A DNA stretch of 63,527 bases, filler included, from Licmophora abbreviata (lineage: Eukaryota), in the NCBI GenBank assembly GCA_900291995.1. It is 10 parts of 10 records of this genome, joined end to end, with 100 filler letters (N's around TTAATTAATTAA, not from the genome) between each part and the next. Parts side by side here need not be neighbours in the genome. Positions count along the whole stretch, not along the records: positions 24,065 to 35,623 come from OLMU01004093.1; 9 more parts are not named here. One strand, given 5' to 3'. The notes under the pieces are model-generated. The model had not been told where the DNA came from. It did no database searches and saw nothing but the letters and a program-made list of their open reading frames with translations. The translations under genes were made by a program, and so were the position numbers. Shown piece after piece: positions 13,149 through 45,980 of this stretch; position 1 is the first letter of the stretch, and each line of letters begins with the position of its first letter.

Positions 13149-13248
13149 NNNNNNNNNNNNNNNNNNNNNNNNNNNNNNNNNNNNNNNNNNNNTTAATTAA
13201 TTAANNNNNNNNNNNNNNNNNNNNNNNNNNNNNNNNNNNNNNNNNNNN

Positions 13249-15473
13249 CTGAGTCCATGTCCATGGATGCAGTCATTGTTACACCAAGAAACAACAATTC
13301 GAAGGAAAGAAAGAAACTTGCCAACGGTCCGGCAATGGCAAAGTCGAATAACGAATTGTAGTTCTTGGGTGGCGTCTTGAGTGGTGTGATGGCACCCGTG
13401 ACGCCAAGCTGTAAGGATGGGACCAAATTTGGAATCCCTATCTCAAACTGATGGAAATGACGTGAAATGAGTGTGCAGATATCAGATTTTGTTTCTGTCT
13501 AAAGAATCACGGGACGATCTCTGACCATGGACAAGTCAGCGACCACTTACCCCATCTTTCATTGCGACTAGGCGATGAGCCAATTCATGTACCAACTGAA
13601 TGCCCAGCAGCGTCCCCAGTGTCGGCACGAACATGTCTGTCAGCAACGAGACATCCACGTCAGTGCCCGTCTCTGCAGCAGCCTGTAGTCGGTCAAGAAC
13701 AGCTGTGTTCATGCCACATGCACCAAGCGCATACACAGCTGAGCTGAGCAAGCCGCCAAGGGAAACAAGCGCCTTGGTCTGTGGTCGACTCAGCTGGTAA
13801 AATTCAGCAGCCTCCACGGACGTCACTGCTAGAATAGGCGCCTCGTCCTGTCCCAGCTCCATGTCTTCCTCTGTCTGAGGGGTTGGGTCTGGCAAGAAGA
13901 AAAACTGCAACTGGCCACCCAGAGACGACTCGGCAAGTCGCTCTTGAAGACGTTCGACCAACAGATCGTTGGCACCGTCTCCTTCTATGCAACTCTCTCC
14001 TCGTAGGTAATATCCTCCCATGACACGTTCTGGCTTGCTTGTCATGACGAATGTGGTCTTGTCCAGAACCTCCGAACAAAAAGATTCGATCTCCTCTGGT
14101 GTTGGTCTGATTGCCTCCATCCTGGCAAAAGCGGGAATAAGTTCTTCGACATGTCTTGACCGATCAAGAAACTCAACATCACTGTATTCGGGTAGGTCTG
14201 GGATGCTGCTCACCTCCATTACAGGCTGAAACGGGATCGCAGGCCCCCATACTTCGTTACCATTTGTAAGTTCCTTTACCACCGTCTCCGCATCAGAGCC
14301 CGTCTTGAGTCCCAATTGCTGAGCGAAATGATCCCTTACATCCGGTGGGAGCGCGTTGTATCCTCGGACGGCGTCTTTGCGATACTCCTCCGTGATGGGC
14401 TTGATAGAGCGCACTTGATCCAACAGCTGCAGTTGCGTCTCGTAATGCTCAATCTGAATAGCGAGTCGGAGGCTGCCAGGTTCCTCTACTTCCTGACGTT
14501 TCTTGTACAACGACTGTAGCACGTTCGGTAGTTTTTGAATGGCCTCCACTCTCTTTTCGATATCTTCTTCTGTCATTTCTGGAATCTCCACATACACACT
14601 GTCACTGTACATGAACGGTCCGTCGTTGTCCAACGCCTTCTCCAATTGATCAATTTCCCGCTTCAACTGATCCTTCTCTTTCGAACTATTCGAGTCTAAA
14701 TATTGTGATTTCAAAGAAGCAACCCGCTGCAAGTCTGCCATGGGCTCGACAAGCAGACTTTGAATCTTGTCGCGAAAATGATCTTGCAGCTCGGGTGCCG
14801 TGCGAAAGGCTTCCAGCTTTTCCGACGGAGTCGCAGTCGTGAGCACTCGTTCGATCTTCTCAGCGACAGGTATGTAGAGTTCGAGATCCTCTGGCGAGAA
14901 TCCCTCCAAGTATTCCTTGTCCTTGTCCATGCGTTCGGAGTCCACCGACGAGGAACGCGCCGATGAAATAGTACTGCTTGCCGGCGACAAGCTGGACAAA
15001 GCAGTGGTGGTGGCGGACGCCGGGGTATCGCTCTTCGTACTTTGTGTCGTATCGCCCGACACCACCCTGCGCGGTGGTTTCCCCTGCAGTCGATTGTTTA
15101 AATCGCTTAACTGTTGACGGAGCTTAGCTTCTTCGTCGGGATGTCGCTCGAGCCACTGCGGATCTGTCAGTTTGCGCTCGATGTTTTGAATTTTGTCGAG
15201 CGACAGGGAAACGTCCATTTTTTCGGCTTCCAATCGCATTTGTTCAGCCTGAGCTCGTAACGAAGCAGCCTCTTGCTGAGGCGATGTAGTTGACGACGAC
15301 GCAGTAGATGTCGTACTCTCGGTTGTGCTGCCGCTCGTTTCTTGCCATACACGTAACTTTGATGGTGTCATCGCCGGGCGCGACCGGATCAAGGAGGGGG
15401 GAGCGAACGCCGTGCTTGTTGAGCCCTCCCAAGCAAGCAGCGACACGGTGTAGCACGAGATTGTTCGCTTCAT
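13249..15473 (-). CDS. EGY-like M50 intramembrane metalloprotease, plastid-targeted, 3'-partial
   Basis: TAFAPP leader, GGYYLRG, HELAH, intron 13448-13550, then LFDFAIAGPLA. Confidence 0.85.
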
Positions 15474-15795
15474 CGTGGTCCGAGCTGTTCAATGAATCGG
15501 AGCAATCCAATGAATGAGATGGATCGTCCACAGGCCGACAATGCCAGCAACAGCAGCATTTGCATCACCACACACAAAGTTGAAGTCGAATGTCGAATTT
15601 TGAATTTTGAGATTGGAAAGATCGGGCGAATCTCGGGAGTTTTCGGAGCTCGAAGCTCGGAGTCACACACCGATCAACCCAAAACAGAAAAAAACAGGGC
15701 AATTGCCCACAATCCCACACTACGGAGTACATGATACCGTAACATGCGATAGCTCTATCCACCCCCTACTACGTTTTAATGACAAAGCTGAAAGG

Positions 15796-18004: not shown

Positions 18005-18646
18005 CAGGGGTACATGAATATGGGGTGTCGCACGGTCGTAGCGCGCTGTTACCATCCGTGGCAACTTTTCTCTAAGTAGCCTTGACGAGAGAACACCGAA
18101 GATAAATATACTACAACATTTAAGATTTAAGATCGCCTNNNNNNNNNNNNNNNNNNNNNNNNNNNNNNNNNNNNNNNNNNNNTTAATTAATTAANNNNNN
18201 NNNNNNNNNNNNNNNNNNNNNNNNNNNNNNNNNNNNNNAGCAGGCGTGTCGTGAGGTTTCATCGGTCATCCCTCCTGAAGCACTTCGAAAGAAACAAGAA
18301 ATCGCCCTCTTTAGAAAAAGAAAGAGAATTCCTCAAATAGATTCGTGTTTCTAAGGCTTTCAGACGATGTTGGTGGCGCGGCTTTGGGCAGAGAGGATTG
18401 GAATCGTCGTAGAAGCGACGATAATGGGTGGCAGCAAAGAGGATCACGTGCATGTACGCGTTGTGACCTGAGAGCCTTGTGGTCCGAAATCTCAAAACTC
18501 GATCGTCACGCGTTTTTCCTGTAGAACCTCGTACCTCTCAGTATGTCACAAGCCGGGCCGTGTTGCCACGGATGGTAACAGAACACCGACGTAGCTTAGT
18601 ACTGGGCCGGCTAGCTCGTGCGACACCCCATATTCATGTACCCCTG
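18005..18646. mobile_element. hAT-like class II DNA transposon/MITE (interior partly in an assembly gap)
   Basis: Perfect 30-bp TIRs (18005-18034 / 18617-18646, starting CAGGGG), 20-bp subterminal inverted repeat (18046-18065 / 18562-18581), and 8-bp direct repeat GTGTGGAA at 17997-18004 and 18647-18654. Confidence 0.88.
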
Positions 18647-18892: not shown

Positions 18893-20576
18893 ATGATATC
18901 CAAAGCAGTTGCGACTTTACTACCGTTCCTTCTCGGGACCGTCCGCGCCCAGACTGAATTTTTGGACCTGCCAGAACTGTCTTGGATACAGCCCTTTGCA
19001 GCTTTGGGCCCTGGAAACGCCGTGACCGCTTCGCCCGATGGGGCCTATGTGTATGCGACGTCGGAGGATGGTCAACTTCAAGTATTCGAAGCTTCCCTGG
19101 GCGACCCGTTGCTGGATCCTCCGTACTCTCCACCTGTGAATGGAGGCCTATCGCTCGGGTCGACGAGCGGAGTGGCGTTCGGGAGTGACTTCCTCGTCTA
19201 CGCGGTCACCGATGGAGTAGTAGGCATGGACGCTGTCATGTGGTACGTTTCAAAGAGTACAACGTGGTGCAAAGCCGTGCCTATCAGTCTTGCGTGCCTC
19301 ACCAAAATTTACTTTTCGATTACCCGCTCGCTCGCTAACGCTCATTCACCACAGTCGAGTTGCCGCTCTCAGCTTCTCCGGAGCCGAACTCTTTGTCTCG
19401 GAGGCCATGGTCGGTGCATGCTCTGGCGACCCCATTGTTTCGTCAGACGATGCCTACATCTTTATCAACACGAACACTGGACTCGAAGGAACTTTCAATA
19501 TTCTAAGTGTCGCTGGCGATGGGTCCAGTTTCTATCGCGAATCACCGCTGACCCCCCTGGACGTCATCACCAATACCACCTCCCGCCCATTTGGACCACT
19601 GGGCATTTACCGCTCGCCTACCACGGGCGCGTATGCGAATGGGACTGGAAATACCAACGACATGCTGGTCTGGTCGAACAGTCTGGCTCCAGAAGAAACT
19701 GTCGTCTGCTGCAGTGCCACGTGGGCCTTTCAGTTCCCGATCGACGACGCCACCTCCCCTCAAGTGCAGCTCCTCCTTCCCAACGATGGAGTCGCGGGGG
19801 CGCCTGGATGGCTGTCCAACGCGGCGCCGGTCCTCTACAACAGTGGTCTCAGCGTCGTCCTGACGGTGTCGCGGAGTGACTTTCGAAGTTGGAATGGCAA
19901 TGGACAGGCTAGGTTCTTTTTTGACCATCGTCCGACGAGCCGCAACTCGCTATCATACGAAAAGGGATCCGTGCGGGCATTCGGATCCACGGTCTCTCCT
20001 GGTTTGAGCAGTGACCCAGTCGAGCCTCAGATTTATGGCGCGACTGCCGGCAATCAGTTGATCAGCATGAACTTTGACCTGAGTCCACTGTGGGAGTTTG
20101 CTCTTTCTTCGCCGGTTTCCTCGGTCCCAAAGGTGACACCCGACGATTCTCGTGTCTTCTTTTGCGAAGAGGCGGGCTTCATGTTCTCATTGGCCTCGGA
20201 CGGTACAAGGAACTGGCAAGTTCCTCTTGGAGCCACTTCGTTTTCCGACATTGACCTCAGTGCCGACGGTAGCACCTTGTATTATGGGAATAGCAACGGG
20301 GATGTTGTGGCATGGACGGTTGCCGGAGTACCCCAGACGGAAGTACCAAGCAAAGCACCCACGGCACCGACTGAGGCTCCGTCAGTAACTCCATCGGTGA
20401 TGGGGGCCCCTTCGGCTGCGCCTGTCATTCCTACGGATCCGCCAACCGCGCCGCCGATCACTCCACCGACCGAACCACCGTCGCCTCCTACATCGGGAGC
20501 ATCCTACGGCGTAGTGACGATGTCAGTGGTGACAATCGCTCTGTGTGCTACCATGACCGCATACTTTTCCGTCTAA
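18893..20576 (+). CDS. Surface beta-propeller (PQQ/BamB-like) protein with Pro/Thr stalk and GPI signal, array copy 1
   Basis: Signal peptide, SPDG/SADG blade repeats, intron 19243-19354, PT-rich stalk, PTSGA followed by hydrophobic C-terminus. Confidence 0.8.
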
Positions 20577-21182
20577 GTGTTCTCATGGAACGAAGGGGGC
20601 AAGGGAGAGAAGAGCTATGATCTTTGCTCGGCAGTTTGGATAGAAACTATCGATTGTTTGGACTGTTTCCTGCTCACTTTGAGAGCTAGAGGAGAAATGC
20701 AGCTGACGGGGACAGGGATAGGGGCTTGCGGCGGCGGCTGCTACATGGAAAATTCGTTAATGAATCTAGGCATATTGCGCGTCACCCCCTTTCGCTGGAG
20801 GTGCGAGATGAAATAGCCCACATGCAGCTACTGCCTAGCAAATGCGACAGTTGTCAGAATGTGCTTTTGTACAAATTAGCACCCCCTGCACACCCGCTCT
20901 ATAGCTTTTCAGTATTTGGTATATAGTACAGCATGGCGGACAAATTCAAACGACACCTTTAAAGTATCACGTCAGATGCCGGTCAGCTAGCATATGTGGA
21001 ATATTTCCTAAAGGCTGTATATGTTAACGATGCCTTCCGTTGAGTCGAGTCAGACTCTCGCAACGCTCATGCTCATCACAAAGAAAGAGGGAAGGGAAGA
21101 ACCAACTCAACAAAATTGGAACGGCCCTGTGTGTCGCCTTTGTCAGTGGATACCGCATAGTACCTGCCTGTCCCGCTGAATC

Positions 21183-22034
21183 ATGTTCTCGAAAGCGTTA
21201 CTCATTCTTGCCCTCGCTGGTGCCGCCAAGGCCCAGCCGATGCTTGAATATCTTCCGCAGCCTATCGAGGCATGGACGGTTGTTACTACTACAATGCGAG
21301 AGGGAAATGCTGTGAGGGCATCGCCGGATGGATCCATTCTGTATGCGACGACGGCCGGTGGAACTGTTTTGGTCACTGACGGGGAAGGCGGTTTTGTCAC
21401 TGGACCCGATCCAATGGACGGTCTGGATCGCGGATCGGCCAGCGGCGTTTCGTTTGGAACTNNNNNNNNNNNNNNNNNNNNNNNNNNNNNNNNNNNNNNN
21501 NNNNNTTAATTAATTAANNNNNNNNNNNNNNNNNNNNNNNNNNNNNNNNNNNNNNNNNNNNGCCCTGTTGTGACACAACCCAAGGTGTCCCCCGACGATG
21601 CCTACGTGTTCTTTGCCGAGCGTACAGGCGTCATGTACGCCGTGGACTCGGACGGCAACAATCTCTGGACCGTCCCCGTTGGAACCGAGATCTTGGCCGA
21701 TATCGACCTCAGTCCTGACGGAACCACATTGTACTGCGGAGATATTCTAGGCAGTCTCACGGCGTGGACTGTCGCTACACTTCCTTCGATGATGCCGTCG
21801 ACGCCACCAAGTAAGGTCCCCACTCCACCTACAGAGGCCCCAACCTTTGTCCCCACGACTTCATTTGCGCCTTCTGTTGCCCCAGTGGCGGCGACGCCAG
21901 CTCCTGTCGCACCGGTGACACCTGTCGCGACCCCGACGGATGCGCCTGTCGCACCTCCACCAACGTCAGGAGCCTACGCCATGTCTGTATTTTCCGTCAT
22001 CATTGGTAGTATTGCTGCCGTGTGGTTCATCTAG
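21183..22034 (+). CDS. Array copy 2 (middle lost in gap 21462-21561)
   Basis: Same N-terminus (GNAV.ASPDG) and C-terminus (DIDLSPDG, PT stalk, PTSGA-hydrophobic tail) as copy 1. Confidence 0.78.
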
Positions 22035-22204
22035 ATTGGGCTGCAGATTGAGTTTGAGCTGATTATATGCGTAAGTTGTGGTGGTGGTCGATGAGAGCGG
22101 GCCAACGGCATTACCCCGAGGATGAGCAAGGTTTCTGCACATGGGCAAATAGTTAAGCTGATTGTAGAATCAAGGACAAACGAATGTAGCGCTGTCGTAG
22201 GTGC

Positions 22205-22550
22205 TGACGGGCGGAGTGAGGTTGGAAATGACTTACTCTTCCATGCCGTGACCAATGGAGTAGTAGGTATGAACGACGTCATGTGGCAAGTTTTCAATTT
22301 GTGCCATTTTGGAGCAGTACCAGCCATTTATAATCGTGCGTGCCTTACAATCGTACCGTTCGCTCACTTACTCGCTCTGCTACCTGATCTGCTGACCACG
22401 CTGCTGCCGTCACGTTCTACACGGGGAGCATCCTAAAACGAAATTTTGGTGGCGACAATACATTTGGGTGCTAGCTACTGTGGTTTCATGCTTTTCCGCT
22501 TACTCGTTATCATAGAATGAAGGGATCACGGGATAGGATGTGATCGTTGC
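22205..22550 (+). pseudogene. Decayed, internally deleted relic of array copy 1
   Basis: 22205-22290 aligns to the end of copy-1 exon 1 (19160-19250; donor GT changed to GC). About 22410-22550 aligns to the copy-1 C-terminus/3'UTR (GGGAGCATCCTA). In-frame stop present. Confidence 0.7.
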
Positions 22551-23445
22551 TTGAAAGGGGTTTTTTCAGCTTGAATAGAGACTGTCGGATCTCAGAATTA
22601 TCCCTGGCTGGGACGTTACCTCTTTCGCTCGAGACTATTGTATGGCGAGCTGGAGAAGAAGAGTACCTGTACATAATTTTTACACGCGGCGCGCCCTACT
22701 ACCCCGAACTTAAGAAATTGACTAGCAACCAGCCAAGCGCTCGTAAACAAACAAACAACTAACCTATTGCAACAAACAGCATGACAGTAATAATGACTCA
22801 GTGATTAGTAGCTTCGCTACTGCCTACAGTCTAGAGAATATGCAAGCGAATGGCTGTAGAGATGCTAGTATGGCAGGGCGGACGACTGGAAACTACTGCG
22901 TGCTTCATTTTTTATTCAAGTGAATGGTATGATGCATCATACCTCTCGCCGTTTCTTTGCCGACGCACAAAACATCAGTGCTACTGCGTACTTTAGAAGA
23001 CTTGTAGCTAGCTAGACTCTAAAGTAGTGTAGGAAAAAGATCTTCTAATCTTACATCTTGCAGGTCTAACTGTATTTTCTACTTTTTTGAAAATCTAGGT
23101 CGTGGTAGAGATCGTGTGAAATACCGACGAAGAAGTGTGACGTCGGCCTGTTTGTCCGACGGTTCTCCGGCAGGATCTGATACTTAGTTGGACGTTGGAA
23201 TGAGTGACGGTGATACGGAGAAGCGCTCAACGCATTTAAGACCACGCTCATGGCTTGTTAATAGATAGAAGTATACACATGGTAGCGATTGTACATGCAT
23301 CTATTCAATACTGTCAATACCGTGAAGCTCAACGGTCGAGTCTCCAAACTCTCAAAAAGCAAAAAGTCAAACCCGAATCTATCCTCATCGCCATAAAATC
23401 TTTGGAACGGCCCACAGTCACAGTGAATACCTCTCCTGTTGAACC

Positions 23446-24535
23446 ATGTTGTGGAAAGCGTTGACCCTTCTTGCCTTCGCTGGTGCCTCCAAGGCCCAGC
23501 CGATGTTTGAGTATCTCCCGCAGCCTATGGAGGCATGGTCGGTTCCTTTCTCCCCGATGGGTGACGGTAACGCTGTCACGGCATCGCCGGATGGTTCCAG
23601 TGTGTATGCGACGGCGGCCGATGGCAGTCTTTTGGTCATCAGTTCTGCAGGGGAAGCAGGCGAGATCTACACGCCCCCATCGAATGCGGGCCTGGGTCTC
23701 GGATCGACCAGTGGCGTTTCGTTTGGAACTGACTTTGTCGTGTATGCCGTGACCGACGGACTTTCTACCGTGACTGAATTCTGGTAAGTTTCATTCTACC
23801 AAGAGCACGGAATCTTTTCAACAGCGAGCAACTCAACGACTTTTACAAACTTATATCTTGTTACAGCCGCATTGCTGCTACAACATTGGCCGGTGCCGAA
23901 CTGTGGGTCTCGCCACCTATGGAAGGAGCATGCGTTGGAGACCCCAAGGTTTCTTCTGATGATGNNNNNNNNNNNNNNNNNNNNNNNNNNNNNNNNNNNN
24001 NNNNNNNNTTAATTAATTAANNNNNNNNNNNNNNNNNNNNNNNNNNNNNNNNNNNNNNNNNNNNGCAGGCGTCATGTACGCCGTCAGTTCGGACGGAACC
24101 GAACTCTGGAACGCCCCTCTCGGAACCGAGATCTTGTCTGACATCGACCTCAGTCCTGACGGAACCACATTGTACTACGGTACCTTTGCTGGCAATGTCA
24201 CGGCGTGGACTGTCGCTGCAGTCCCTTCCACGGATGCGCCGTCCGATCTTCCTTCGATGATGCCGTCGATGGCTCCAAGCAAGGTCCCCACTCCAGCCAC
24301 GGAGGCCCCAACCTTTGTCCCCACGACTTCGTTTGCGCCTTCTGTTGCCCCAGTGGCGACGACGCCAGCTCCTGTCGCACCGGTGTCACCTGTCGCGACG
24401 CCGACGGATGCGCCTGCCGCACCTGTCGCGACGCCGACTGATGCGCCTGTAGAGCCTCCTCCAACGTCAGGAGCTTACGCCATGTCGGTCTTTTCCGTCA
24501 TTATTGGGAGTATCGCTGCCGTGTGGTTTGTCTAG
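23446..24535 (+). CDS. Array copy 3 (middle lost in gap 23965-24064), close paralog of copy 2
   Basis: Intron 23784-23866 at the conserved site. C-terminus and 3'UTR nearly identical to copy 2. Confidence 0.8.
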
Positions 24536-25224
24536 ATTGGGTAGCAGACTGGGTTTTGAGTTGATTACATGTTATTTGAGGTGGTTGCTGAGAAGGACAA
24601 AGTGCCAACGGCAGTACCCCGAGGATGGGCAAGGTTTTTACATTTTGGCAAGATGGTTAAGCTGATAGTAGAATCCAAGACTATTCTCTTTTGAATGACC
24701 TTAGATAGGGCGAGTTGCTGCACTAGACGATCGGTGTCGACCGTGTTTTGATGTCGTCTACAACCTATGAAGCGGCCACAAGACAACAAGACATCAATCA
24801 ACGCCGCGCGCAGGCACGGGCGGAAGACGCGCGGTTCAGTTCGATGTTTCTCGCCGCCGTTTCAGACCATGATGACAACATGACGAAACATCGCCGATGA
24901 GGTGAACACGACGACCCTTGTTGCCCACGACGTCTCGATGAGAACGAAGAATTCGAATGCTTCATATCATATGCATCGTCTGAGTATCCCTTCATCGGTG
25001 AACCACGACGAAAAGTTCTGCATCTTCGTATATGCCGCAACGAAGGACTGCTCGACTCACGGAGTAGTCGTCACCGCCGTGTCGATCCACGATGTGCATC
25101 ACCTCGGCTCGACGTTCCTTCTTCATCGTGGGAACCCCCATCGTGACCCACACGCTGAACGTCTTCGACCTCATGCTCATACTTTGGTACAGAGCAAGAT
25201 TTGCTCCGTAGATCCATTCTGACG

Positions 25225-26926
25225 ATGAAGACCGCCCTCTCCTTTTTTGCCTTTTCCTCGGCCGTGTGCACCGCACAGCTGACTTATCTGGACCAGCCTG
25301 GTGTCGCCTGGACGCAAACCTTTGCTCCCCTTGACGATGGAAATGCTGTCAGTGTGTCCCCGGATGGAAGCACTGTCTATGCTACGTCGGCTGATGGTCG
25401 GCTTTGCCTCTTGAGCAGTGCGACGGGAGAAATCGTCGACGTGTACCAGCCTCCGCAGAACCGAGACCTCGTTCCTAGCTCCAACAGCGGCGTCGCCTTT
25501 GGAGAAAGCACTGATCTTGGATCGTTTGTCGTTTACGCCATTACCGATGGCCTGAACACGCTGAGCGAGTTCTGGTGAGTACGAATACTGCTTAAATGTG
25601 TGTTTGGTTTGCCGAAATGTTGCTCATTGTGTTTCCATAATGTACTGCTCGTTCACATGCAGTCGTATTGCTGCCGTCACGCATCCGTCGGGAGATGAAC
25701 TTTGGATCTCCGATCCTCTCGAAGGTGCATGCTCTGGAAGCCCCAAGATTTCATCCGATGGAGCGCATGTGTTCATCAACCACAATTCCCAGGCCCGTAC
25801 GGTTGGACACTTCTCCGTTCTCCAGTGCGATGTCGGCGGAGCAGTTCTGTTTACGAGCGAGGGCGACGCCACTCAGCCATATGGGCCTCTTGGCATCTAC
25901 CACGATCCTGTGCAGGGTGCGTACGAGGGAGGTCTTGGCAACACCAACGACATTCTTCTCTGGGCCTACCAGCCGAACATCGGCGAGACTACGATTGACA
26001 ACGGTGGAACATTTGCGTTTCAATTCCCGTTTCCCGCCTCGGAGCCCATGACGATCAAGACTCTTATCCCCAACGTAGATCGCGGCATTCCAAGCCCGGA
26101 CTGGCAGGTCGTGTCCGCACCAGTTATCACCAACCAAGGACTTACGAGCTACTTCTCTGTCTCGCGGAGTGAGTTCCGCGTGTGGAATGGCGCCGTTGGG
26201 GCCAAGGGCTCATACTTTGATCGGCGCGCAACGGGCAACCAGCGCGACTTTGACGCAGGACTTCCACGCAGCACCCCTGGTCAGACTTCTCTTGTCCTCA
26301 GTAGCGATCCAGTGGAGCCTCAGCTCTTTGGGGGACTTGCAAGCAAGTTCTTTGTGAGCATGGACTTTCAGTTGGCAGAGCTATGGGAGAACCCAACCTT
26401 TTCAGTTGTCATGGCGGAAGGTCGCGTCTCTCCCGACGACTCGCGTGTGTACTATGTCGAGCAGAACGGAATCTTCTACTCCGCTCTCGCTTCGGATGGG
26501 TCTCTGAACTGGGAAGTCTCAATTGGATCTTTCACCATGTCTGACTTCTCTCTGAGCGCTAATGGTGACTTCCTCTACTATGGTGACACGCTCGGAAACA
26601 TCGTCGCGTGGCAGATTGCTTCCCCGCCAGCCACCGAGGCGCCTAGCGTGGACCCTAGCAGTGTTCCATCCGAGAGCCCCAGTGGAGTGCCCGTCGCCCC
26701 CACACCTGCTGCTACGCCATTGCCTACAGTGGCGACGGAAGCTCCGATTCCTGATGTCGGCATGATCGAAACCGATGCTCCCACCGGCGGTTCGTCTCCG
26801 GTGGCTTCCACTCCTACCACGACAGGAACGTCTGCCCCCAGTGCCTTGGAGCCCACCTCGGGAGCCACGAGCGTCGTAGGCTTTACGACTATTGCTTGCG
26901 CTGCTGCTGCTGTCCTATTGATCTAG
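25225..26926 (+). CDS. Array copy 4, complete
   Basis: Signal peptide MKTALSFFAFSSAVCTA, intron 25575-25662, PYGPLGIYH.P..GAY.GG.GNTND motif, PT stalk, GPI-like tail. Confidence 0.82.
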
Positions 26927-27543
26927 CTTGTGTCATCGATAGTGTCCGTCCTGTGTGTGTTTGAAGATGACTCCAGTGATACTATGCATGTGTCGAAAAG
27001 ATGATTGATAGCGATTATTACTGGTATAGAACATGGCCAATCACGAGTTTGCTGGGAATATCACCATCTTCTGTAGCGTAGACTAACTTAGCAGGTTCTA
27101 TTATCATCTTTTCGCTTTAGACAACGTAAAAGGCATTCCAAACGCGGTTGACTATCAGGTCTGATATGGCAAACTTTACGCACGATTCGCTGACTACAGA
27201 TAATATATATTCACACTTGAAGGTGACATACATTACTCGCGCGCAGAATTTTGGTCCCCCGACCCCACATTTTGCTTACCCAACGCACTGAACGCACTAC
27301 TTTATCAGGCATGCACCTTGTTGCCATCGTTCTACTCTCTTGCTCGTGGGAAAGTACTCCGCGTCGGGTTTGCTATCATAATAAGTAGTGGACGACTGGA
27401 TGCGACGAGTCGTCGAGATTGAAAGACAGTGACTCGACTGCTGCGGAACAAGAGTTTTGCGAGCCGCCGACGCGACAAACGCTCTGTGTACCGTTGCATT
27501 ACCCACTACGAAGATGACCACGAGCCCGAGCACCCGATATTTC

Positions 27544-30155
27544 ATGAGAAGAAACGCGTGTTTCCTTATTCTTCTTGTCATTCTACATCTCGAGAGCACA
27601 TTGGTAGCTGAGCCACTTGACAGTATTGGAGAATGCGGAGATGATCTCATTTGCGGAAACTGTGAAGGTGCGGTCACGCCGATGGACGAGAATTCCCTAA
27701 TTATGGTCGGCAAGCAGATGGATTGTCCTCACACTGTCATTTTCTTCCAAACATAGGTGACTGTGACAGCACAGATCACTGTGCAGACGGGCTGTGGTGT
27801 TTTGAGCGAGTAGGCTTCACACCCGTGCCTGGGTGCGAGGGCGAAGGTGACGAGAGCAAGGATTATTGCACAGGTCCTGCGGGGCCGCCTCTGCGAAACC
27901 CAGGATGCTACTAGGAATCAGTGCGGGGAGTGTCAAGGTACAGCGACGACTGTGAAGAAATCTCTGGTATGTTTGAATTGTACTCTTGCTCGGAGAGGCT
28001 CATCAATTCATCGCTTTTTTCGCCTGATGTAGGAGCGTGCAGCAACGATCAAGAGTGCCAAGGGAGTTTGAAGTGTTTCGTACGAGACGATTTCCTTGCT
28101 ATCCCCGGATGTACTGGGCGAGGCGTGGGGGGCGCGAATTACTGCTATGACGATGGGAGCGCTCCGCCGCCTACAACACCAGAGCCAACTGTACCACCTC
28201 CGACGCCCATGCCGACACCACAGGCGACACCACAGCCGACACCGGCCCCAACGACCGCAGAACCCACTCCCGAGCCAACAGACCGACCTTCGCCGCCACC
28301 GACAATATCACTGTCCCCGACTGCGGCTCCATCTTTCTCTCCCACTTCTGTTCCAAGCTATGTGCCATCTGCAGGTCCGACGGTATCTCAGGCTCCTTCT
28401 TATGCGCCGTCGACTAGCAGTCCAACGTTTAGCTTTGTCAATACCAATGTACCAGACCGTTTGTGGTTCAACCAGCTTGGCAGTACTACGCAAAAGGGGA
28501 ATGCTGTAACATTCAGTCCGGATGGTGAGTCGCTATATATTACGACAGCCGATGGCGGCGTAAGAGTTTTGAACACAAGCAATGGGCTCGAGCGCTGGTC
28601 GTTTACAACCGATGCTGGAAGCAATGGGTGGAATGTCAAGTGCACGAGTGGTGTCGCATTCGGGGAAATGGATGGAATCGGCGAATTTGCTGTGTATAGC
28701 GTCACTGACGAGGCGCCGGTAGGCAGCGGCAGTGAATCAGAAAGGTGAGTGTGCTGTTATTTTGGATGAGTGCTCCAAGAAGCGGGACGATTTCGCAAGA
28801 CTAAACAACTAATGTTCACACCTCTGGACAGTCGCATTGTTGCGGTTTCGCATCCAGTCAACAGCCTTTTGTGGGTATCAGAACCTTTGAGAGGAGAAGC
28901 GTCCGGGACGCCGTTCGTGACGCAGAGCACGGGTACAGCTGGAAAGTATATCTTTGTGACGCACAATGTAGTCGGACCCTTTGGACCAGGTGGGTTCTTT
29001 TCGGTCGTCACCGCAGAGGATGGGGCTATTCTCTTTACAGAAAGTAGCGGGGAGGCTAGTGCTGCCGCAGATTTCTACACATATGCCCCGCCCGGAGGAT
29101 CTCATTTCCCACTACGGGGCATGTATGCAGGCGGCGAGTCCAATACGAATGACATTGTCGCGTGGGCGACTAGCGACAACAACGGCAACAACAATGGCCT
29201 CGGCAGCGCTGGGTTTATGCGTGCATTTCAGCTTCCCATGAACTTTGATCCGGCAACCTTTGACGAGGTGCTCACGACGACTGACCTGGGGATATCCGAT
29301 TGGAGTGCTTTGACACGACCGACGCTAAGCAACAACGGAACAAATATGTTCGTTACGGCTAGACAAAGTAGGATCTATGCTTGGGTCGATGGCGCATTGT
29401 TTTCCGACGTGACAACTTGGAGTGCCGATCTGACACGGGACGATACCAACGGGGCTTTGCGTAAGTCGATTGAAAAGTTTTGTTACTCCTCTTGAGGTGG
29501 ACACCATGAGGCATGTGTGCTAACACAGGCTTACTTGCCCCTCCTGCTTTTAGCCATACGAAACGATGGCGTCTTGTCAGCGAGTGAAACACGATTCTTT
29601 ACATCGTCCAGTGCTACAACATTCGCGGGCATTGATACCCGGACCGGGAATGTGCTGTGGGAAGAGGCAAGCTTGTCCGTCTTCCTCGGCGCGCCAAAGG
29701 TGTCCCGTGACGACGAACGAGTGTACGCCATCCAGTCCACCGATGGTCGGATCTACGGGTGGGATCAAATATCGGGTGACGTCTTGTGGTCCGTGAGCTG
29801 CGACAATTACGAGGAGGACTGCGCCAATAGTGTCGAGGCTGAATTCGATTTGAGCGACGATAGTTTGGTTCTTGTCTATGTGGATGTCGTGGGCAGAGTG
29901 ACAGCCTTGCAGGTTGGCACTTCGCTCGTCCCCACCGCGCCTCCCGCCGCGGGACCATCGCCACCCGTGTCCACGATGCCCGGCGTGTCACCCACACCGC
30001 CCCCCTCATCCACACCGGGCAATCCTACCAATCCAGGTAGTGGCGAACCCGCCAATGGCGAGCCTGATACTACAAGTGCAGCGGGTACCTTGGGAAGATC
30101 GAAAACAGCGTCGCTTGTGGTTTTGTGTGTAATCGTTGTCTTGGCCGTCTCGTGA
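27544..30155 (+). CDS. Array copy 5: two frustulin-type ACR repeats + PT linker + beta-propeller + GPI-like tail (apparent frameshift near 27909)
   Basis: CGNCEG|DCD..DHC..GL.CFER...VPGC.G.G...DYC and CGECQG|AC...EC...LKCF.R...IPGC.G.G...NYC. Introns 27668-27756, 27938-28032, 28745-28831, 29461-29553. Confidence 0.78.
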
Positions 30156-32955: not shown

Positions 32956-34128
32956 TCAAAACAAGTAATCTGTCACCAGCAATCGTTCCTGCCCGTCTTG
33001 ACCTCGTACTCGCAACTGCCCATCGTCTTCCAACAGTACCGGTTGTACGACCTCCCCCGTTTCTCGTATTGTTTGGGAAATCCCAAAATCAGCACTCGCC
33101 CTCCAAGTATCGAGAACCAGCTGCCCCGAGTCCGCATTCGTCTCTCGCCACCACTCGACCAACGACACGGCCAAATCGTCTCCCAAGTCCTGCGCCATCA
33201 CGGCCTTTGCAGAAGAGTCGTCTGTACAATGCTCCAAAACAGCCGCAGCCGGACGCCCTCGATTCGTCCCCTCCAATGGTACCTCGGGCGCTTGGACCAG
33301 GTTCACTCCAATGCCGACTAGAAAGTACTGATCCTTGCCAACCAGTTCGCTCTCCATCAAGACACCCGCCACCTTGTTCCCATCCACCAAGACGTCGTTG
33401 GGCCATTTTAAGGACAGGTTGGGAGGTTTTAACTTTGTTGTACTGCTGCAGCACTCTTTGAGAACACGCTTCAGTCGATCCGCCAGGAGATTCCCAATTT
33501 GCAGCGGCAAGAGCGTCAAAGAAAAGTCGGAATGCAATTTGGAACGCGGCAAAGCGACCGTGAGAAAGAGGTTCCCAGGCTGACCCATCCATGTACGTCC
33601 CGATGTGCCTCGTCCTCTGACCTGTTCCTTGGCGGAAACTGTCAAGTAGGGAGAAGCAGTAGTAGTAGTACACGTTGTATCATCACGGTTGTCGTCGAAA
33701 TTGACATGAAGCAGGCGTCGCGCTTCGTCTTGGGTCGACTCTACTGAATCCAAGCGGTGCATCGTTAAGTCAGAGGATAAGACCACAGGCCCCAAGGACG
33801 AGGACATGTTTCGGCCGCCTCCAGGCATGACCGATAGCAGGGACGAGGATGCAGAGGACGACAAGGCCGATGATGTAGTAGGAGTAAGAGCCCAGCACCG
33901 GCAGCGCGGGGACACAAAGAAGGAAAGAAATGTCGTCGTCAGGACCATTCGTCGACCGAACAAGCACCAGCCGTGCATCCTCTCTAGAGGCAAGAAGAAA
34001 CTGCGGGTAGTGAGAAGCAGGACAGCTGTAGAGGGAGAGAGACCAAGGATTGCGATCGGTGCGGCGTCGTAATCAACATGGTCGGTCGTCGCGGTCTGTC
34101 GCGCGGCGGGCGTCGCAGTCGCTTCCAA
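32956..34128 (-). CDS. birA: Biotin-protein ligase (BirA/BPL catalytic domain), start uncertain
   Basis: VESTQ, Q..GRGTSGRTW, LKWPNDVLVDGNKVAGVL, GIGVNL, DDGQLRV. Confidence 0.9.
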   Translation of the reverse strand: MEATATPAARQTATTDHVDYDAAPIAILGLSPSTAVLLLTTRSFFLPLERMHGWCLFGRRMVLTTTFLSFFVSPRCRCWALTPTTSSALSSSASSSLLSVMPGGGRNMSSSLGPVVLSSDLTMHRLDSVESTQDEARRLLHVNFDDNRDDTTCTTTTASPYLTVSAKEQVRGRGTSGRTWMGQPGNLFLTVALPRSKLHSDFSLTLLPLQIGNLLADRLKRVLKECCSSTTKLKPPNLSLKWPNDVLVDGNKVAGVLMESELVGKDQYFLVGIGVNLVQAPEVPLEGTNRGRPAAAVLEHCTDDSSAKAVMAQDLGDDLAVSLVEWWRETNADSGQLVLDTWRASADFGISQTIRETGEVVQPVLLEDDGQLRVRGQDGQERLLVTDYLF

Positions 34129-34345
34129 AACGGAACGAATGAATCAAATCAATCGCGCGTGCTGAGTTCCTCTGAAAACCCGGAGTGTGGACTTTGCGAC
34201 CCGCTCGAAGTCTGTTTCTCAACAATTCGAAACGTGGCATTCTTATTTCCACTGATGAAGACAGGCAGCCCTCTCACACATCACACTCCACAGTACCGCG
34301 GAGATCACGGCCGCGAACAACACGTCCACAAACTTGGAAGCAAAG

Positions 34346-35254: not shown

Positions 35255-35723
35255 CTAGCTGTACCTTGTGTTGTATACGAAATACTCAAAAGTCACATAC
35301 CAATCCCCCACTTACTCGTGAGCACACTGTACCAGTTGCAATACAAGAATATAAATGCAGCTCTCAGAGAATCGTTACGCATAATGTGGTGCCACCACAA
35401 GAGCCGATTGAGAAGACAAATCTCTGAGAAAAACCTTCCTCTCAGTCATCCATTCCCACCGTATGCTCGTCCTCTCTACTACTCGTAAGTGAGGGACACG
35501 CTGCACATAGGTATAGTAGGACCTCGTCAACGAAGCCATGCATACCACGGTTTCAAGTTGCCACAGCTATTCGAAGTAATCAATATCTGCGGCACTGGAT
35601 ACATGTGCTATGAATACTTCTTTNNNNNNNNNNNNNNNNNNNNNNNNNNNNNNNNNNNNNNNNNNNNTTAATTAATTAANNNNNNNNNNNNNNNNNNNNN
35701 NNNNNNNNNNNNNNNNNNNNNNN

Positions 35724-41274: not shown

Positions 41275-44200
41275 CTAGGCATCATGCTCAGACTCTATTT
41301 TCTCTGCTGTTTTTCGACTTCTGCGTCCGAGGAGTTGGCTACTCTGCTTCTGCTTTACGGTGGACGATGGTCGATCGACCTCTGACAGCTTCTTTGGGGG
41401 ACTGGCCTTGGTCGGAATAGAACTATCGCCTCCCCCGACTTGCTTGGCAATACGTACAATGTCCACGGCACTGGGTTCCAATACATGTTTGTAACACGCC
41501 ATACTGAGCTTCTCCCAGCGACCGAACCATTCGTAGATAACCTTAACGAGCGCCTTCCAGGCAATTGGAAGAAGCCCACCCTCTTCGGACAAGTGCTTCT
41601 CCATTCGACCGTAGATGATCGTTATCTTCTCTTTCATTACTTCCCTGTTGGACTCTTTCTGCAAAGTCTTCACGAAAGTCGCCCGGGGCACATGAATTGG
41701 AACATCCTTGTCACCTACGTCTCGTCGAACTCGAGAAATCTGTGAGAACAACGCATGCAGAGGCTTGAACTCGCGTTTGATCATCCAACCAAGGTACGCA
41801 TCTGTACTCTGTTTGCAAGAAGAACTGGCTCGCAACAGCTGCCTCTGGAACAGTGCCTGCATCTCGGGACCGCGTTCTTTGATCTTTTGCGTAAAGAAAT
41901 AAGTGTTTTCCATACGCATCACGTTGGCGGCGTACTGTTGATCTGTCGACTCTCGCTCTGAGCACACTCGCAAACTTTCGAGCATGGCGTTGGTCATTTT
42001 CTGGAGGTAGTAGCTCACGACTTGGATCTTAGACAAGTTCGGGGTATAGTGCTCGGATTTGCCTTCCTGACAACACATGAGAATATGATCAAGATATGCG
42101 GGGAAGCGCGAGAAGCTCATGAAGATACCAGCCCGCTTTCCGGTAACGGGAACACCTGGATTTGATTTGATCCAGTCAATCTGTTCTTCCACCCACGCGA
42201 CCCACTGCTTGTCAACTTTCTTTCGCAAGGCGAGTACCGTCGCACGCACGTACGCGAGAGACAGAGACTGATCACCGCCCTTCTTGTCTCGGTCGACATA
42301 TTGGTCCATCGCTTCATTTAGATGAATGGACGCGACAAGCGACAACATTGGATCTCCTCGTAGCGAACGACCCACCAGCTCTGCCTCTCCGTCCAAGATG
42401 CCGCACGTTCGCTGGATATAGTACCGAAAGTACTGCGTCGAATTATCCACAGCCTTCTTGGCGGCCTCGAAATTGCGCTTCTTCTCGCGGCCGTCCACCG
42501 ATTGGCCACTTAAACCAAACAGGGCCGCCGTAAAATAAGCTTCGCGTGCAATCTGCGGGCAAAGCAGCAGATGGGGCAATAGTGAGTCAGAATTTCGTCC
42601 TTGCCATCACAGTCTACTTGCAGTAGTTTTACTCACCACGGGAAGCATCTCATTCAGTGCATTTGAAACATCCGGTGCGTGAACCAGCTTTTCCCCTTCA
42701 ACGTCGCCATGTGGGCTATAATCCTGCAACTCCTTTGACGACAGGTTGAGGTATGCGCTGTTCTTCCCTGGAAGAGCCTGGAAGTAACCCTTCATGCGTT
42801 TCTTCATCATGATACCTTCTGCGACCATCTCAGAGTACGCGTCTCGAATAGCAGGAATCAGTGAAGGCTTCAGCACCGATAGAATTTCAATGAGCTTCAT
42901 GTATCCAAGCAATGCCGATTGAAACTTTCGCTGCGTCTGCGAATATGAACCAGGGTGGGAAATGAGAATGGCGCTCAGAACAAGGTGAAGCAGCGCAAAG
43001 TTTGTCCCATTGATAACTTACATCTCGAATCTTTTTGGCAATCATGCCATGCGTATCGTGCTTTGACACCTTGCCATTGTCCGACGCCACAACAACAACG
43101 GTCTTCATCTGCTCCATGACAGTCACAATAATCTGTGAGAGTGCGGTGCAGAACTGGTCAGCGGTGGTATTGAGCCCCTCCACGCGCTCGCCAACTGCCA
43201 TCAGATGGACCCCGCCGGCTTGTCGGGCGCTGTCGATCGCATCCTTGAGCGTCTCTCCAGCTTCATAGATTTTATCTACTCCCCGCTCACTCTTCTCTAC
43301 GTCAAGTTCTCCCACCGAGCTGTAAACCAAAGCAGACGCGGGGTTTTTGAGAACCTTCTCAGAGCTCCGGTCCACGTCCACTCCCTGGAGCAGACGTCTC
43401 AGTTCGACTCCCAACATGTCGTACGATTTCCACTGCTGCTCAAGTTGGCGATTTTCCTCCTCAATGTCGCGACAGTCATCTGTCAGCGGTTTGATGACAG
43501 CAGCTCGGTCATCAAGCCAATCTTCCATTTCACACAATTCTTTGTCGAGCAAATCCAGCGTGTTGAACAGCGCCGACAGCGACAAGGCGTCCACCGTTGT
43601 GTCCCAGTTGTCACTGGCCGATTGTCCCATCAAACTGTAATGCTTCTCGTCCTCCCATGCAATCAATCGACGACACGTTTCTGCCTCGAGGTCTCGCATG
43701 CGCTGTTGAAGCAATTCCCCGAGCTTTTGGATATTTTCGTCTTGGTCGTCTTGCGGCATTGCCATAGTTATTGCGTTCAGAACTTCTTCTGCGTCCGCCT
43801 TTTGTTCCACCGACGTGAACAAGGCGACCCGTGTTGTGTAGTTGCCCATGAGAAAGTCATAGGCAAGATCCTTGTCCTCGGCTTGTTTCGATTCTTCGTC
43901 TTCGCGTTTGTAAATATCACGCTGGCGATCAAGTAAGGCACACAGAGTCGGACTGTCCCGCAAGAAGCCATGCACCTGAGCAACGTACTGCAACTCGGCA
44001 CGATCCAGATTGCGCACTTGAAGCGGCTGTTGAATCGTAGTGGGCTGACGACTATTCTGCAGCTGCTGCACTGCCTTCATGTTGCGCTCCAATACCGACT
44101 GACACAGCATGGCTTGTATCTGCAACAGGCTCCACAAGAACTGCTCTTGACGCATGCCTGCAGAGCTACCCTTGTCGGGGGGAGCAGCGCTGTCGTCATC

Positions 44201-45424: not shown

Positions 45425-45980
45425 AATTTAGACTGTATCGAGAGGTCAACGGCAGCAACGGACGAGTCAATGTGACAGCAATGGCTTTGTCTTCACTTCT
45501 TGGCAAGCTTTACTTCGTGCTTCCCAAGATTTGTTCCAAATTTTGGTTTTTACGTAGACGTCAGTAGAAAGTTACGTAAATTGCATTTCGGGAAGGCAGG
45601 ACCCGGAGATTGATGCAGATGTCGAAGTTGTGTGTGCTGTCCCAATGGCAGAGTGGACACCACCGTATCCATCACAGTCCCCGTGCATTTCCTCCGACCC
45701 GATGATGGTCCATTGCAACCGATTGAGAGTTGAGAATGCATGGTTTCTCATAGAGAAGGCATCGATTACTAGTCTGTATAGCTCCCACAGGAAAGCCTTG
45801 CTTGAGAAATTCTCTTCACGAACCAATGCGACTACCTACCAATCCGAAAGAGCATGTAGAGCAGCACTCATTCTTGTCGGGCCATAAGTATCTTTCGGGG
45901 TGATCCACCCAATGTTGCGTAGAGTCCATGATCGCTCAGTGAAAGCTTCTCTCTCTAGTAACGTACTTGCTGTGCTCTTT

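Follow-up and report, generated by a model that had tools for sequence, protein, structure and literature searches.

A diatom gene model that joins frustulin-type acidic cysteine-rich units to a putatively GPI-anchored beta-propeller

In the stretch of Licmophora abbreviata DNA analysed here (63,527 nucleotides from assembly GCA_900291995.1, hereafter the window), positions 27514-30155 (+) appear to hold a genuine nuclear gene of diatom type. Its product would be a cell-surface protein in which acidic Cys-rich (ACR) units of the frustulin type precede a beta-propeller. We put the probability of this reading at roughly 0.55. The predicted order is a signal peptide, an ACR cassette of an 8-Cys form, a Pro/Thr-rich stalk that is probably O-glycosylated, the propeller, a second stalk and a GPI-type C-terminal signal. 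The combination of ACR with an anchored propeller is a new architecture made with a known module, and the pairing is unusual but not unique. In the frustulin literature, seen mostly as titles and the beginnings of abstracts, no description was found of ACR fused to a propeller or to a GPI anchor.

Gene layout and the frame break in exon 2

Translation places exon 1 at 27514-27667 (+), with an ATG at 27514 and a second in-frame ATG at 27544. It encodes a signal-peptide-like hydrophobic N-terminus followed by the first three Cys of the first unit (ACR1), and its last residues read ..C-G-N-C-E-G, the Gly codon of CEG being cut after its first base at 27667. Intron 1 (27668-27756, +; 89 nt, GT..AG) is in phase 1 inside this codon (CEG|DCD). 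Exon 2 (27757-27937, +; 181 nt) completes the codon from 27757 and continues with DCD, carrying the body of ACR1 (27757-27869) and the front of the second unit, ACR2 (27892-27937), which runs through ..C-G-E-C-Q-G to the first base of its Gly codon at 27937. Intron 2 (27938-28032, +; 95 nt, GT..AG) is again in phase 1 inside the Gly codon (CQG|ACS), and G-ACS resumes at 28033. In exon 3 (28033-28744, +) a single uninterrupted frame starts with the ACR2 body (28033-28145), passes through a linker (about 28158-28454) and reaches the first propeller blades. This exon is followed by intron 3 (28745-28831, +; 87 nt, donor GTGAGT), exon 4 with the central blades (28832-29460, +), intron 4 (29461-29553, +; 93 nt, donor GTAAGT, phase 1) and exon 5 (29554-30155, +), which encodes the last blades, a second linker rich in Pro, Ser and Thr, the residues SAAG, a polar spacer, a hydrophobic tail and a TGA stop. 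On the Kyte-Doolittle scale, 11-residue windows above 2.0 in the model protein start at residues 13-18 and 682-688, with one more at 602 (2.05). Behind the hydrophobic N-terminus, no RXL motif is present in the first 120 residues. Searches returned no annotated protein for this gene; exon 3 gave 4 distant matches among longer proteins and 1 among proteins of near length.

The sequence-only reading had proposed that the Cys repeats are fused to the propeller. This is supported by exon 3, where the ACR2 body, the Pro/Thr-rich stalk and the first blades lie on one open exon, so the fusion is independent of the gene model. The open translation of this exon is 237 aa long, and its residues 155-225 match the first blades of four paralogues. 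It is very improbable that the ACR exons and the propeller are separate transcripts or genes. As assembled, a stop does divide ACR1 from the rest, but the ACR2 body, with five of its eight Cys, shares the open exon with the linker and the first blades. Exon 3 also lacks a signal-peptide-like start of its own, though the protein needs to enter the ER, and translation of the open frame from 27915 likewise revealed no such start. In addition, a continuous ACR-linker-propeller ORF occurs in another organism (protein P0232).

A continuous ORF through both repeats, as first proposed, is not what the assembly contains, because exon 2 has a frame break and a stop. The ACR1 body is read in the frame of 27759, which ends at a TAG (27912-27914), and one must move to the next frame to read the three N-terminal Cys of ACR2. 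The break lies within 27870-27891, an interval with a GGGG run at 27881-27884. From the arithmetic of the model, an mRNA that includes exon 2 as assembled stops at codon 104. With one base fewer the exon has exactly 60 codons and the product has two ACRs in 758 aa, and with exon 2 skipped the product has one chimeric ACR in 698 aa. As the most likely source of the surplus base we see an assembly error or else a recent lesion at the level of the allele, since the defective exon encodes the better-preserved ACR (53 versus 38 bits), since removal of one base gives 60 codons and a GGGG run falls in the break interval, and since the window, a draft pseudomolecule, contains 9 joints of the form N44-TTAATTAATTAA-N44. 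The intended product would therefore be the 758-aa protein with two ACRs.

It is possible, at rather long odds, that the surplus base is real and exon 2 a dead cassette, with a working mRNA made by joining exon 1 to exon 3. Such a join could occur because both introns are in phase 1 at the same codon, and the chimeric ACR would consist of the three front Cys of unit 1 and the body of unit 2. Skipping yields the only complete ORF obtainable from the assembled sequence with canonical sites, the chimeric unit scores 37.7 bits with a general ACR profile and 39.1 bits with a frustulin-like one, and P0232 indicates that a single ACR suffices for this architecture. However, skipping needs a 365-nt intron where the five local introns have 87-95 nt, and the exon left out is the one with the best-preserved ACR (53 bits), a state that would be surprising in a sequence long out of use. 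An error in exon 2 is also plausible in a draft assembly.

The literal reading of the assembly is that exon 2 is included and the gene inactivated, leaving a secreted single-ACR peptide of at most 103 aa ended by the TAG at 27912, or an mRNA that is degraded; the propeller part would no longer be produced from the locus. Redundancy in the tandem family of five members would tolerate this loss. We nevertheless regard inactivation as improbable, given that exons 3-5 are open throughout, keep conserved residues of the family and show 61% identity with protein P0125, that the splice sites are intact, and that the Cys count of the truncated product, 9, would be odd. A check by hand found no acceptor in exon 2 that carries the phase of exon 1 into the ACR2 frame. 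Use of a donor at 27873|27874 gave an open 737-aa model and was rejected for its poor donor (GTCCTG) and for leaving ACR2 without its three front Cys. In pieces as short as these (50-110 nt), log-odds of codon usage failed to discriminate between the frames.

The cysteine-rich units and their introns

The ACR has been defined as an acidic, Cys-rich unit of about 50 aa with affinity for Ca2+ (accessible part of PMC4557024), and CQGDCD and VPGCSG are given as its frustulin motifs (accessible part of PMC4712521). The assignment of the two Cys repeats to this type stands, as the motifs agree and both of our profiles match. With the general ACR profile, built from 348 units in 112 of 120 proteins, ACR1 scored 53.0 bits and ACR2 38.0 bits, and the best of 400 composition-matched shuffles reached 5.9 bits. 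The frustulin-like profile, an HMM built with 27 units taken from 7 proteins that combine ACR with a ricin-type C-terminus, gave 50.7 bits for ACR1 and 38.2 bits for ACR2 (400 shuffles, at most 7.7). None of these 7 proteins is named 'frustulin' in its source; we infer that they are frustulin-like because the Trp-rich domain of frustulins is a ricin-B domain, according to the accessible part of PMC4712521.

ACR1 has 52 aa with 8 Cys, 14 D+E versus 2 K+R and a pI of 4.05. ACR2 has 53 aa with 8 Cys, 7 D+E versus 4 K+R and a pI of 4.39. In a comparison within the window, the two align over 36 aa with 38.9% identity (E 2.9e-5), and no further ACR copy was found there. ACR1 carries VPGCEG and, only after splicing, CEGDCD. 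ACR2 carries CQGACS and IPGCTG, each agreeing with CQGDCD and VPGCSG at 4 of 6 positions, and from these replacements it appears to be a degenerate copy. Among 483 ACR units from database proteins the commonest hexapeptides were CEGDCD (229) and CQGDCD (137); the 8-Cys form with CGxC[EQ]G, which both ACR1 and ACR2 have, occurred in only 4. There is no Pfam model of the ACR, and ACR1 matched no family at E<=1. As a lead only, a protein atlas placed the ACR with unnamed Bacillariophyta clusters (0.88). An AF2 model of one database 8-Cys unit reached a pLDDT of 66.8, and a Foldseek search with this model gave no match at E<=0.001. We also considered the knottin fold of spider toxins for the ACR and rejected it, the best match (VIA Z 2.2) not being meaningful.

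As first described, the Gly codon of C[EQ]G is interrupted in each repeat by a GT..AG intron of phase 1. No CEGDCD exists in the unspliced DNA, and the hexapeptide of ACR1 arises by removal of intron 1. Retention of intron 1 leads to a stop at the end of the intron, and only its splicing joins the ACR1 body to the putative signal peptide. Splicing of intron 2 supplies the first conserved Cys of ACR2 and raises its profile score from 37.0 to 42.4 bits. The exon 3 frame is also open through intron 2, so that an alternative with a single stop-codon change is possible. Both introns have a lower GC content (0.48 and 0.44) than exon 2 (0.59), and their lengths fit those of introns 3 and 4 and of an intron in paralogue D (87, 93 and 88 nt). 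Compared with introns 3 and 4, introns 1 and 2 have weaker donors (GTGCGG and GTACAG). The junction obtained by splicing intron 3 (..SESE-S-RIV..) matches P0125, and the position of this intron is shared by paralogue D, which has an 88-nt intron there, and by database relatives. At the intron 4 site many database fragments end with the read-through ..RK...

The phase-1 intron in the C[EQ]G codon of each unit means that the middle exon is built as a symmetrical (1-1) module of 60 codons, with the rear part of ACR1 followed by the beginning of ACR2. Duplication of an exon module is a plausible origin for the two ACRs, and it is consistent with the same rare 8-Cys form and the same intron site in both. 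No residual similarity was detected between the introns or between the repeat DNA of the two units (z about 0), which counts against a recent duplication.

The propeller and its relatives

Exon 5 matches Pfam PF13360 (PQQ_2) with 33.1 bits, above the cut-off of 27.6 bits. Four of the five database relatives that were scanned (P0126, P0133, P0134 and P0140) are also above this cut-off, at 38-47 bits; P0232 (24.1), paralogue D (18.2) and paralogue A (24.4) are below it. The fold was modelled on P0126, a relative 47% identical over exon 4, as a stand-in for the ACR-propeller protein. The AF2 model (pLDDT 85.1) is all-beta over residues 25-465, and its best natural PDB matches in Foldseek are BamB chains (E about 1e-14, TMt 0.70-0.76). 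The ACR-propeller protein resembles the BamB/PQQ_2 propellers in its PF13360 match and in the fold of the P0126 model, but sequence identity to BamB is only 12-15%, and unlike BamB the protein is eukaryotic, secreted and putatively anchored by a GPI-type tail, with Pro/Thr stalks. No function is transferable from BamB. In the protein atlas, the propeller lay near PQQ_2-type clusters at 0.89 or less, which we record as a lead only.

The linker behind ACR2 has about 98 aa, of which 65% are P, T or S. At the other end, inspection found ..SAAG, a polar spacer of 7 residues, a hydrophobic tail of 15 residues (30108-30152) and TGA, in agreement with the GPI-like end that the sequence-only reading had claimed; GPI addition itself is predicted. 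A similar hydrophobic tail is present in 31 of 57 near-full-length propeller relatives, and in the relative P0139 a transmembrane helix and a cytoplasmic tail take its place.

Four paralogues lie upstream on the same strand (18893-26926, +). tblastn and ORF translation placed paralogue A at 18893-20576, B at 21183-22034, C at 23446-24535 and D, with its 88-nt intron, at 25225-26926; B and C are each interrupted by an assembly joint. In these paralogues the order is a signal peptide, the propeller, a Pro-rich linker and a hydrophobic tail. The suggestion that the ACR ties the whole array to the wall does not hold, as A-D all pass from the signal peptide straight to the propeller and have no ACR.

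Exon 4 has 181 relatives at E<=1e-3. The nearest, P0125 (61% identity), is a fragment without its N-terminus. A search for other fusions of ACR and propeller, as had been proposed, found one, since 1 of the 151 propeller relatives examined, P0232, carries an ACR (49.9 bits) and belongs to another subfamily. This metagenome-derived protein of 1083 aa bears the source label 'Leucine-rich repeat (LRR) protein'. Its order agrees with that of the ACR-propeller protein, with a putative signal peptide, one ACR, a linker rich in Pro and then a propeller from the same family. It differs in that its ACR is of the 6-Cys form and contiguous in the ORF, and in having a C-terminal LRR domain where the ACR-propeller protein has a GPI-like tail. 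The P0232 propeller shares 48% identity with paralogue A, 43% with D and 27% with the ACR-propeller gene. In a quick tree P0232 grouped with paralogues A and D (support 100 and 99), and the ACR-propeller gene grouped with P0125 (99), both nested among proteins that lack ACR (97). Because of these placements, the present propeller lineage would have gained its ACR separately from P0232, the only other ACR-bearing member of the family found. DNA searches found no second genomic copy and no orthologous locus. With P0125 alone, the search gave 130 pattern matches and no relative; with a two-row alignment it gave one locus (L001), a cDNA-like family member of 614 aa without ACR.

ACR units in diatom proteins and a possible role in the wall

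Frustulins, wall glycoproteins of diatoms with ACR domains (alpha- and epsilon-types in Cylindrotheca and Navicula, and those of Fistulifera), share with the ACR-propeller protein the acidic Cys-rich units of about 50 aa, the motifs C[EQ]GDCD and VPGC.G and Pro-rich linkers; a signal peptide, putative in the ACR-propeller protein, would be common to both. Compared to frustulins, the gene described here has one or two units only, of the 8-Cys subtype and split by introns, and the bulk of its product is a beta-propeller with a GPI-type tail. A rule for whole frustulins asks for at least three of five features, among them a presequence (ER signal and second targeting peptide) and Pro-rich, polyglycine and Trp-rich domains (accessible part of PMC4712521). 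In the ACR-propeller protein a Pro-rich domain is present as the linker behind ACR2. The model protein has no run of 4 or more Gly, and no exon matched PF00652, the ricin-B type to which the Trp-rich domain belongs, at E<=1; a propeller makes up its C-terminal half.

Taken together, the sequences indicate that the ACR is a portable extracellular module of diatoms, found in frustulin-like proteins and in many ectoenzymes. A hand count among the 120 matches listed gave carbonic anhydrase (PF00194, 31), DUF839 (PF05787, 15; proteins that we take to be PhoX-like phosphatases) and ricin (PF00652, 7) as partner domains, and subtilisins, GH16 and fasciclin were also among these 120. The other ACR fusions resemble the present protein in that the same module is attached through a Pro-rich linker to an unrelated extracellular domain, and differ in the partner and in copy number, since ACR proteins usually have several copies with Pro-rich linkers between them. 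In the one carbonic-anhydrase fusion examined (P0042) the ACR is C-terminal to the enzyme domain. A hydrophobic C-terminal tail was found in 6 of the 120 ACR proteins listed, for example in the Cylindrotheca closterium subtilisins P0088 and P0091. The presence of ACR on so many unrelated ectoproteins makes the fusion to a propeller less special.

A role for the ACR-propeller protein as a linker between the plasma membrane and the frustulin coat is plausible. The acidic ACR end would dock in a Ca2+-dependent manner into the organic casing formed by frustulins, which Kroger and colleagues reportedly extracted from walls with EDTA in 1994. The GPI end would stay in the plasma membrane, and the propeller would be presented between membrane and wall. 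We consider it less likely, although by no means far-fetched, that the ACR is not a dock for the frustulin coat but a general disulfide-rich acidic spacer, a module that binds metal or one that resists proteases, added by diatoms to many of their secreted proteins. The anatomy of the protein would then stand, and the C-terminal anchor alone would hold it at the surface. This idea draws on the occurrence of ACR on many kinds of enzymes, usually in multiple copies with Pro-rich linkers in a stalk-like arrangement, on the rarity of a hydrophobic tail among the listed ACR proteins, and on the lack of a fold relative with a functional hint. Against it, frustulins, which are mostly made of ACR units with affinity for Ca2+, occupy the organic casing across the whole wall (accessible part of PMC4557024), and a frustulin-GFP fusion was displayed at the outer wall surface (accessible part of PMC4712521).

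A broader and quite speculative possibility, which we think doubtful, is that the ACR serves diatom ectoproteins in general as an address tag for docking into the Ca2+-bridged organic casing, that together with the GPI anchor it forms a two-point tether between membrane and wall in the present protein, and that it spread as a symmetrical phase-1 exon. This would take in the carbonic anhydrases, the DUF839-type proteins, the proteases and the propeller, and, if true, the spread of the phase-1 exon would be direct evidence for exon shuffling in diatom wall biology.

Soberly viewed, the propeller is one more partner domain for a module already seen on many database proteins, and annotation of the locus must handle a probable one-base error or lesion. 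If the ACR is a portable wall-docking tag, this would explain how exoenzymes and receptors are retained at the frustule, and surface display could make use of the unit as a natural tag of small size. How the protoplast of diatoms is physically connected to the wall is poorly understood. A protein held in the membrane by a GPI anchor and in the casing by its ACR would be one candidate for this connection.

Exon structure and fusion to the propeller

We mapped the exons of the ACR-propeller gene (gene E) from three-frame translation and matches to relatives. The gene spans 27514-30155 on the plus strand, with two Cys repeats, ACR1 and ACR2, at its 5′ end. Exon 1 (27514-27667) holds the start codon, the signal peptide and the front of ACR1, and is followed by exon 2 (27757-27937; 181 nt), exon 3 (28033-28744; ACR2 body, linker and first blades), exon 4 (28832-29460; central blades) and exon 5 (29554-30155; last blades, linker, tail and a TGA stop). 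The introns between them measure 89 nt (27668-27756), 95 nt (27938-28032), 87 nt (28745-28831) and 93 nt (29461-29553). The start at 27544 proposed in the sequence-only reading is an in-frame ATG, but it is the second of two and the first lies at 27514. The model protein has two clusters of strongly hydrophobic 11-residue windows, a signal-peptide-like one with starts at residues 13-18 and another, with starts at 682-688, that corresponds to the last 15 residues; one more window stands isolated at residue 602.

Direct reading confirmed the claim that both repeats are split at the same motif codon by phase-1 GT..AG introns. Exon 1 ends in ..C-x6-C-G-N-C-E-G, where the Gly codon is represented by its first base alone, and exon 2 starts with the remaining two bases, then D-C-D. 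Because intron 1 splits this Gly codon, the hexapeptide CEGDCD is present only once 27668-27756 is removed. Likewise, the front of ACR2 reads ..C-G-E-C-Q-G, with one base of the Gly codon, up to 27937, and A-C-S resumes at 28033. Introns 1 and 2 are similar in length to introns 3 and 4 and to the 88-nt intron of the upstream paralogue D, and both are poorer in GC (0.48 and 0.44) than exons 2 and 3 (0.59 and 0.56). Splicing of intron 1 is required to connect the signal peptide with the ACR1 body. Each unit gains its first conserved Cys through splicing, upon which the profile scores of ACR1 (51.4 bits) and ACR2 (37.0 bits) rise to 53.2 and 42.4 bits, respectively. The frame of exon 3 (27915-28744, plus strand) is also open backwards across all of intron 2, to a TAG at 27912, so a transcript retaining this intron meets no stop inside it.

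ACR2 is physically linked to the propeller, independent of the gene model. Exon 3 is a single open frame of 237 codons containing the ACR2 body (five of the eight Cys of ACR2), a linker of ~98 aa (65% P+T+S) and blades that match the first blades in four paralogues; no signal-peptide-like start was found within this frame. The proposed ACR-propeller fusion therefore stands, since all three elements share one open exon.

A one-base defect in exon 2

A frame break and a TAG within exon 2, which place ACR1 and the front of ACR2 in different frames, had been overlooked. The frame of the ACR1 body (that of 27759) continues into the TAG at 27912-27914, and the front of ACR2 (27892-27937), with three Cys, is encoded in the frame following that of ACR1. 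As assembled, an mRNA containing exon 2 reaches a stop at codon 104.

Three routes to a full ORF were considered. We favor one base less within 27870-27891, a candidate site for an extra base that includes a GGGG run, giving two ACRs. Exon 2 minus one base is exactly 60 codons long and a symmetrical phase 1-1 exon, the better-preserved ACR unit is encoded by the very exon that bears the defect, and the window is a draft pseudomolecule with 18 runs of 44 N. Skipping of exon 2 would also keep the frame because introns 1 and 2 share phase and codon. It would yield 698 aa with one chimeric ACR scoring 37.7 bits on a general ACR HMM, but the implied intron of 365 nt compares poorly with local introns of 87-95 nt and we favor this route less. 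An internal donor between 27873 and 27874 would give 737 aa; it is likewise less favored than the loss of one base, the donor being poor and ACR2 losing three Cys. A search of DNA for an orthologous locus retrieved none. As assembled, the gene carries a one-base defect in exon 2.

ACR units as a reused module

The frustulin literature describes ACR domains as acidic, Cys-rich units of ~50 aa with Ca2+ affinity (PMC4557024) and two hexapeptide motifs, CQGDCD and VPGCSG (PMC4712521). The corresponding motifs are CEGDCD and VPGCEG in ACR1 and CQGACS and IPGCTG in ACR2. The units are 52-53 aa long with eight Cys apiece and have pI values of 4.05 and 4.39, respectively. A search seeded with P0001, a repeat protein reached via exon 3, returned 304 proteins at E<=1e-5; among the 120 of the 304 that were listed, the organisms named by the sources were all diatoms. 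The general ACR HMM, from 353 canonical units (348 unique) in 112 of the 120 listed proteins, scored ACR1 at 53.0 bits and ACR2 at 38.0 bits, and 400 composition-matched shuffles at no more than 5.9 bits. Because the Trp-rich domain of frustulins is a ricin-B domain according to PMC4712521, we rebuilt the profile on 27 units from the seven PF00652-carrying proteins among the 120 matches listed. Scores were 50.7 bits for ACR1 and 38.2 bits for ACR2, with shuffles at or below 7.7 bits. Both units are members of the ACR module. Both hexapeptide motifs, degenerate in ACR2, and HMM scores far above shuffles support the assignment to the frustulin ACR type as that literature describes it. No ACR protein listed has 'frustulin' as its source-given name, so the frustulin link rests on motifs and architecture. 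Across the window, we found no ACR units beyond these two.

Partner domains were counted by hand from precomputed Pfam assignments of the 120 listed proteins. Eukaryotic-type carbonic anhydrase (PF00194) occurs in 31, DUF839 (PF05787) in 15 and ricin-B (PF00652) in seven; further partners include PF14307, subtilase, fasciclin, GH16, FG-GAP and PKD. Attachment to carbonic anhydrase and DUF839 was seen in diatom proteins P0007-P0096 among the matches listed, and no published account of either was found in the literature searched. A hydrophobic tail ends 6 of the 120, including two Cylindrotheca closterium subtilisins, which makes a membrane-anchored ACR protein uncommon but not without precedent.

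ACR1 and ACR2 both belong to a less common 8-Cys subtype, in which two additional Cys precede CGxC[EQ]G. By pattern it occurs in 4 of 483 units, an undercount, as for example the ACR protein P0069 has it in every repeat. That both share the subtype and the intron site fits a duplication within the gene, or acquisition of the two units together from a single donor. There is no residual DNA similarity between the two units or between the two introns (z = 0.1, 0.0 and 0.3), so any duplication would be old.

The propeller family, its genomic setting and a possible role

Exon 5 matched Pfam PQQ_2 (PF13360) at 33.1 bits (cut-off 27.6), and exon 4 has 181 relatives at E<=1e-3 in a representative library, with a top identity of 61%. 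Full-length relatives are laid out alike, with, in this order, a signal peptide, a variable N-terminal part, a Pro-rich linker, the propeller, a Pro/Ser-rich linker and a hydrophobic C-terminus; a hydrophobic tail ends 31 of 57 relatives with an M start and at least 450 aa. The AF2 model of one relative, P0126 (pLDDT 85.1, pTM 0.80), consists of beta structure throughout residues 25-465, followed by a disordered stretch and a terminal helix. Designed propellers ranked first in its structure search, above the best natural PDB matches, which were BamB chains (E ~1e-14, TMt ~0.7, 12-15% identity). The BamB match names the predicted fold of P0126 and no function. In an alignment of database relatives, family fragments often begin ..SR[IV].. 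or end in read-through ..RK.., and these ends correspond to introns 3 (28745) and 4 (29461). These two intron positions thus seem to be conserved family-wide, and many of the 'proteins' in the database are single exons from prokaryote-style gene finders.

The ACR profile matched 1 of 151 propeller-family proteins examined, a lower bound because many are N-terminally truncated fragments. This protein, P0232 (49.9 bits; runner-up 2.4 bits), carries one ACR, a linker and a propeller, so the fusion sought does occur in the database; it differs in its C-terminal LRR domain. The P0232 propeller shares 48% identity with paralogue A and 43% with D, compared with 27% for the ACR-propeller gene. A quick tree was built from 35 sequences, namely 31 relatives chosen from the 150 database matches listed plus A, D, gene E and P0232. 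In it, P0232 clusters with A at a support of 100 and with D at 99; gene E pairs with the relative P0125 (99) within a clade of ACR-less proteins (97). ACR therefore joined the family at least two times, or was lost many times.

In each of the tandem paralogues A-D (18893-26926, plus strand), the signal peptide leads directly to the propeller, and a Pro-rich linker and a hydrophobic tail are also present. None has an ACR, so the array as a whole is untagged and the proposal that all of it is tied to the cell wall is not supported. One contig (24065-35623) carries the end of C together with D and E, and the adjacency of these genes is therefore real. B and C, each interrupted by an assembly joint, have nearly identical C-termini, which could reflect either a recent gene duplication or sequence that was collapsed or duplicated during assembly.

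Nine identical joints (10090-10189, 13149-13248, 18139-18238, 21462-21561, 23965-24064, 35624-35723, 50557-50656, 55112-55211 and 61244-61343) each consist of TTAATTAATTAA with 44 N on either side, and this central 12-mer interrupts every one of the six reading frames with a stop codon. The window is thus a pseudomolecule in which draft contigs were strung together, and the sequence proves no order across joints. Other ORFs with Pfam matches encode a molybdopterin oxidoreductase with a Mo-co dimerisation domain (1307-2614, plus; 2.2e-52), a 7tm_3 class-C GPCR (10795-12369, plus; 1.3e-29), a biotin/lipoate ligase (32959-34143, minus), a Sec3 C-terminal domain (41278-42606, minus), a UAA nucleotide-sugar transporter (48469-50067, plus; 5.9e-50) and a radical SAM protein (58383-59885, plus). 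Long ORFs at 13539-15488 and 42890-45427 (both minus) had no match in the Pfam search.

By analogy with the frustulin literature, the acidic ACR end would associate with the Ca2+-dependent organic casing and the GPI-type end would remain in the plasma membrane. More soberly, ACR may serve generally as a stalk rich in disulfides or as a spacer that binds metal. The AF2 model of a stored 8-Cys ACR unit is of moderate confidence (pLDDT 66.8) and has no meaningful relative among solved structures, so structure is uninformative on the role of ACR. The sequence-only reading was largely right in what it observed and partly right in its interpretation. The ACR-propeller gene is a new architecture, built with a module, ACR, that is itself known and widely reused.
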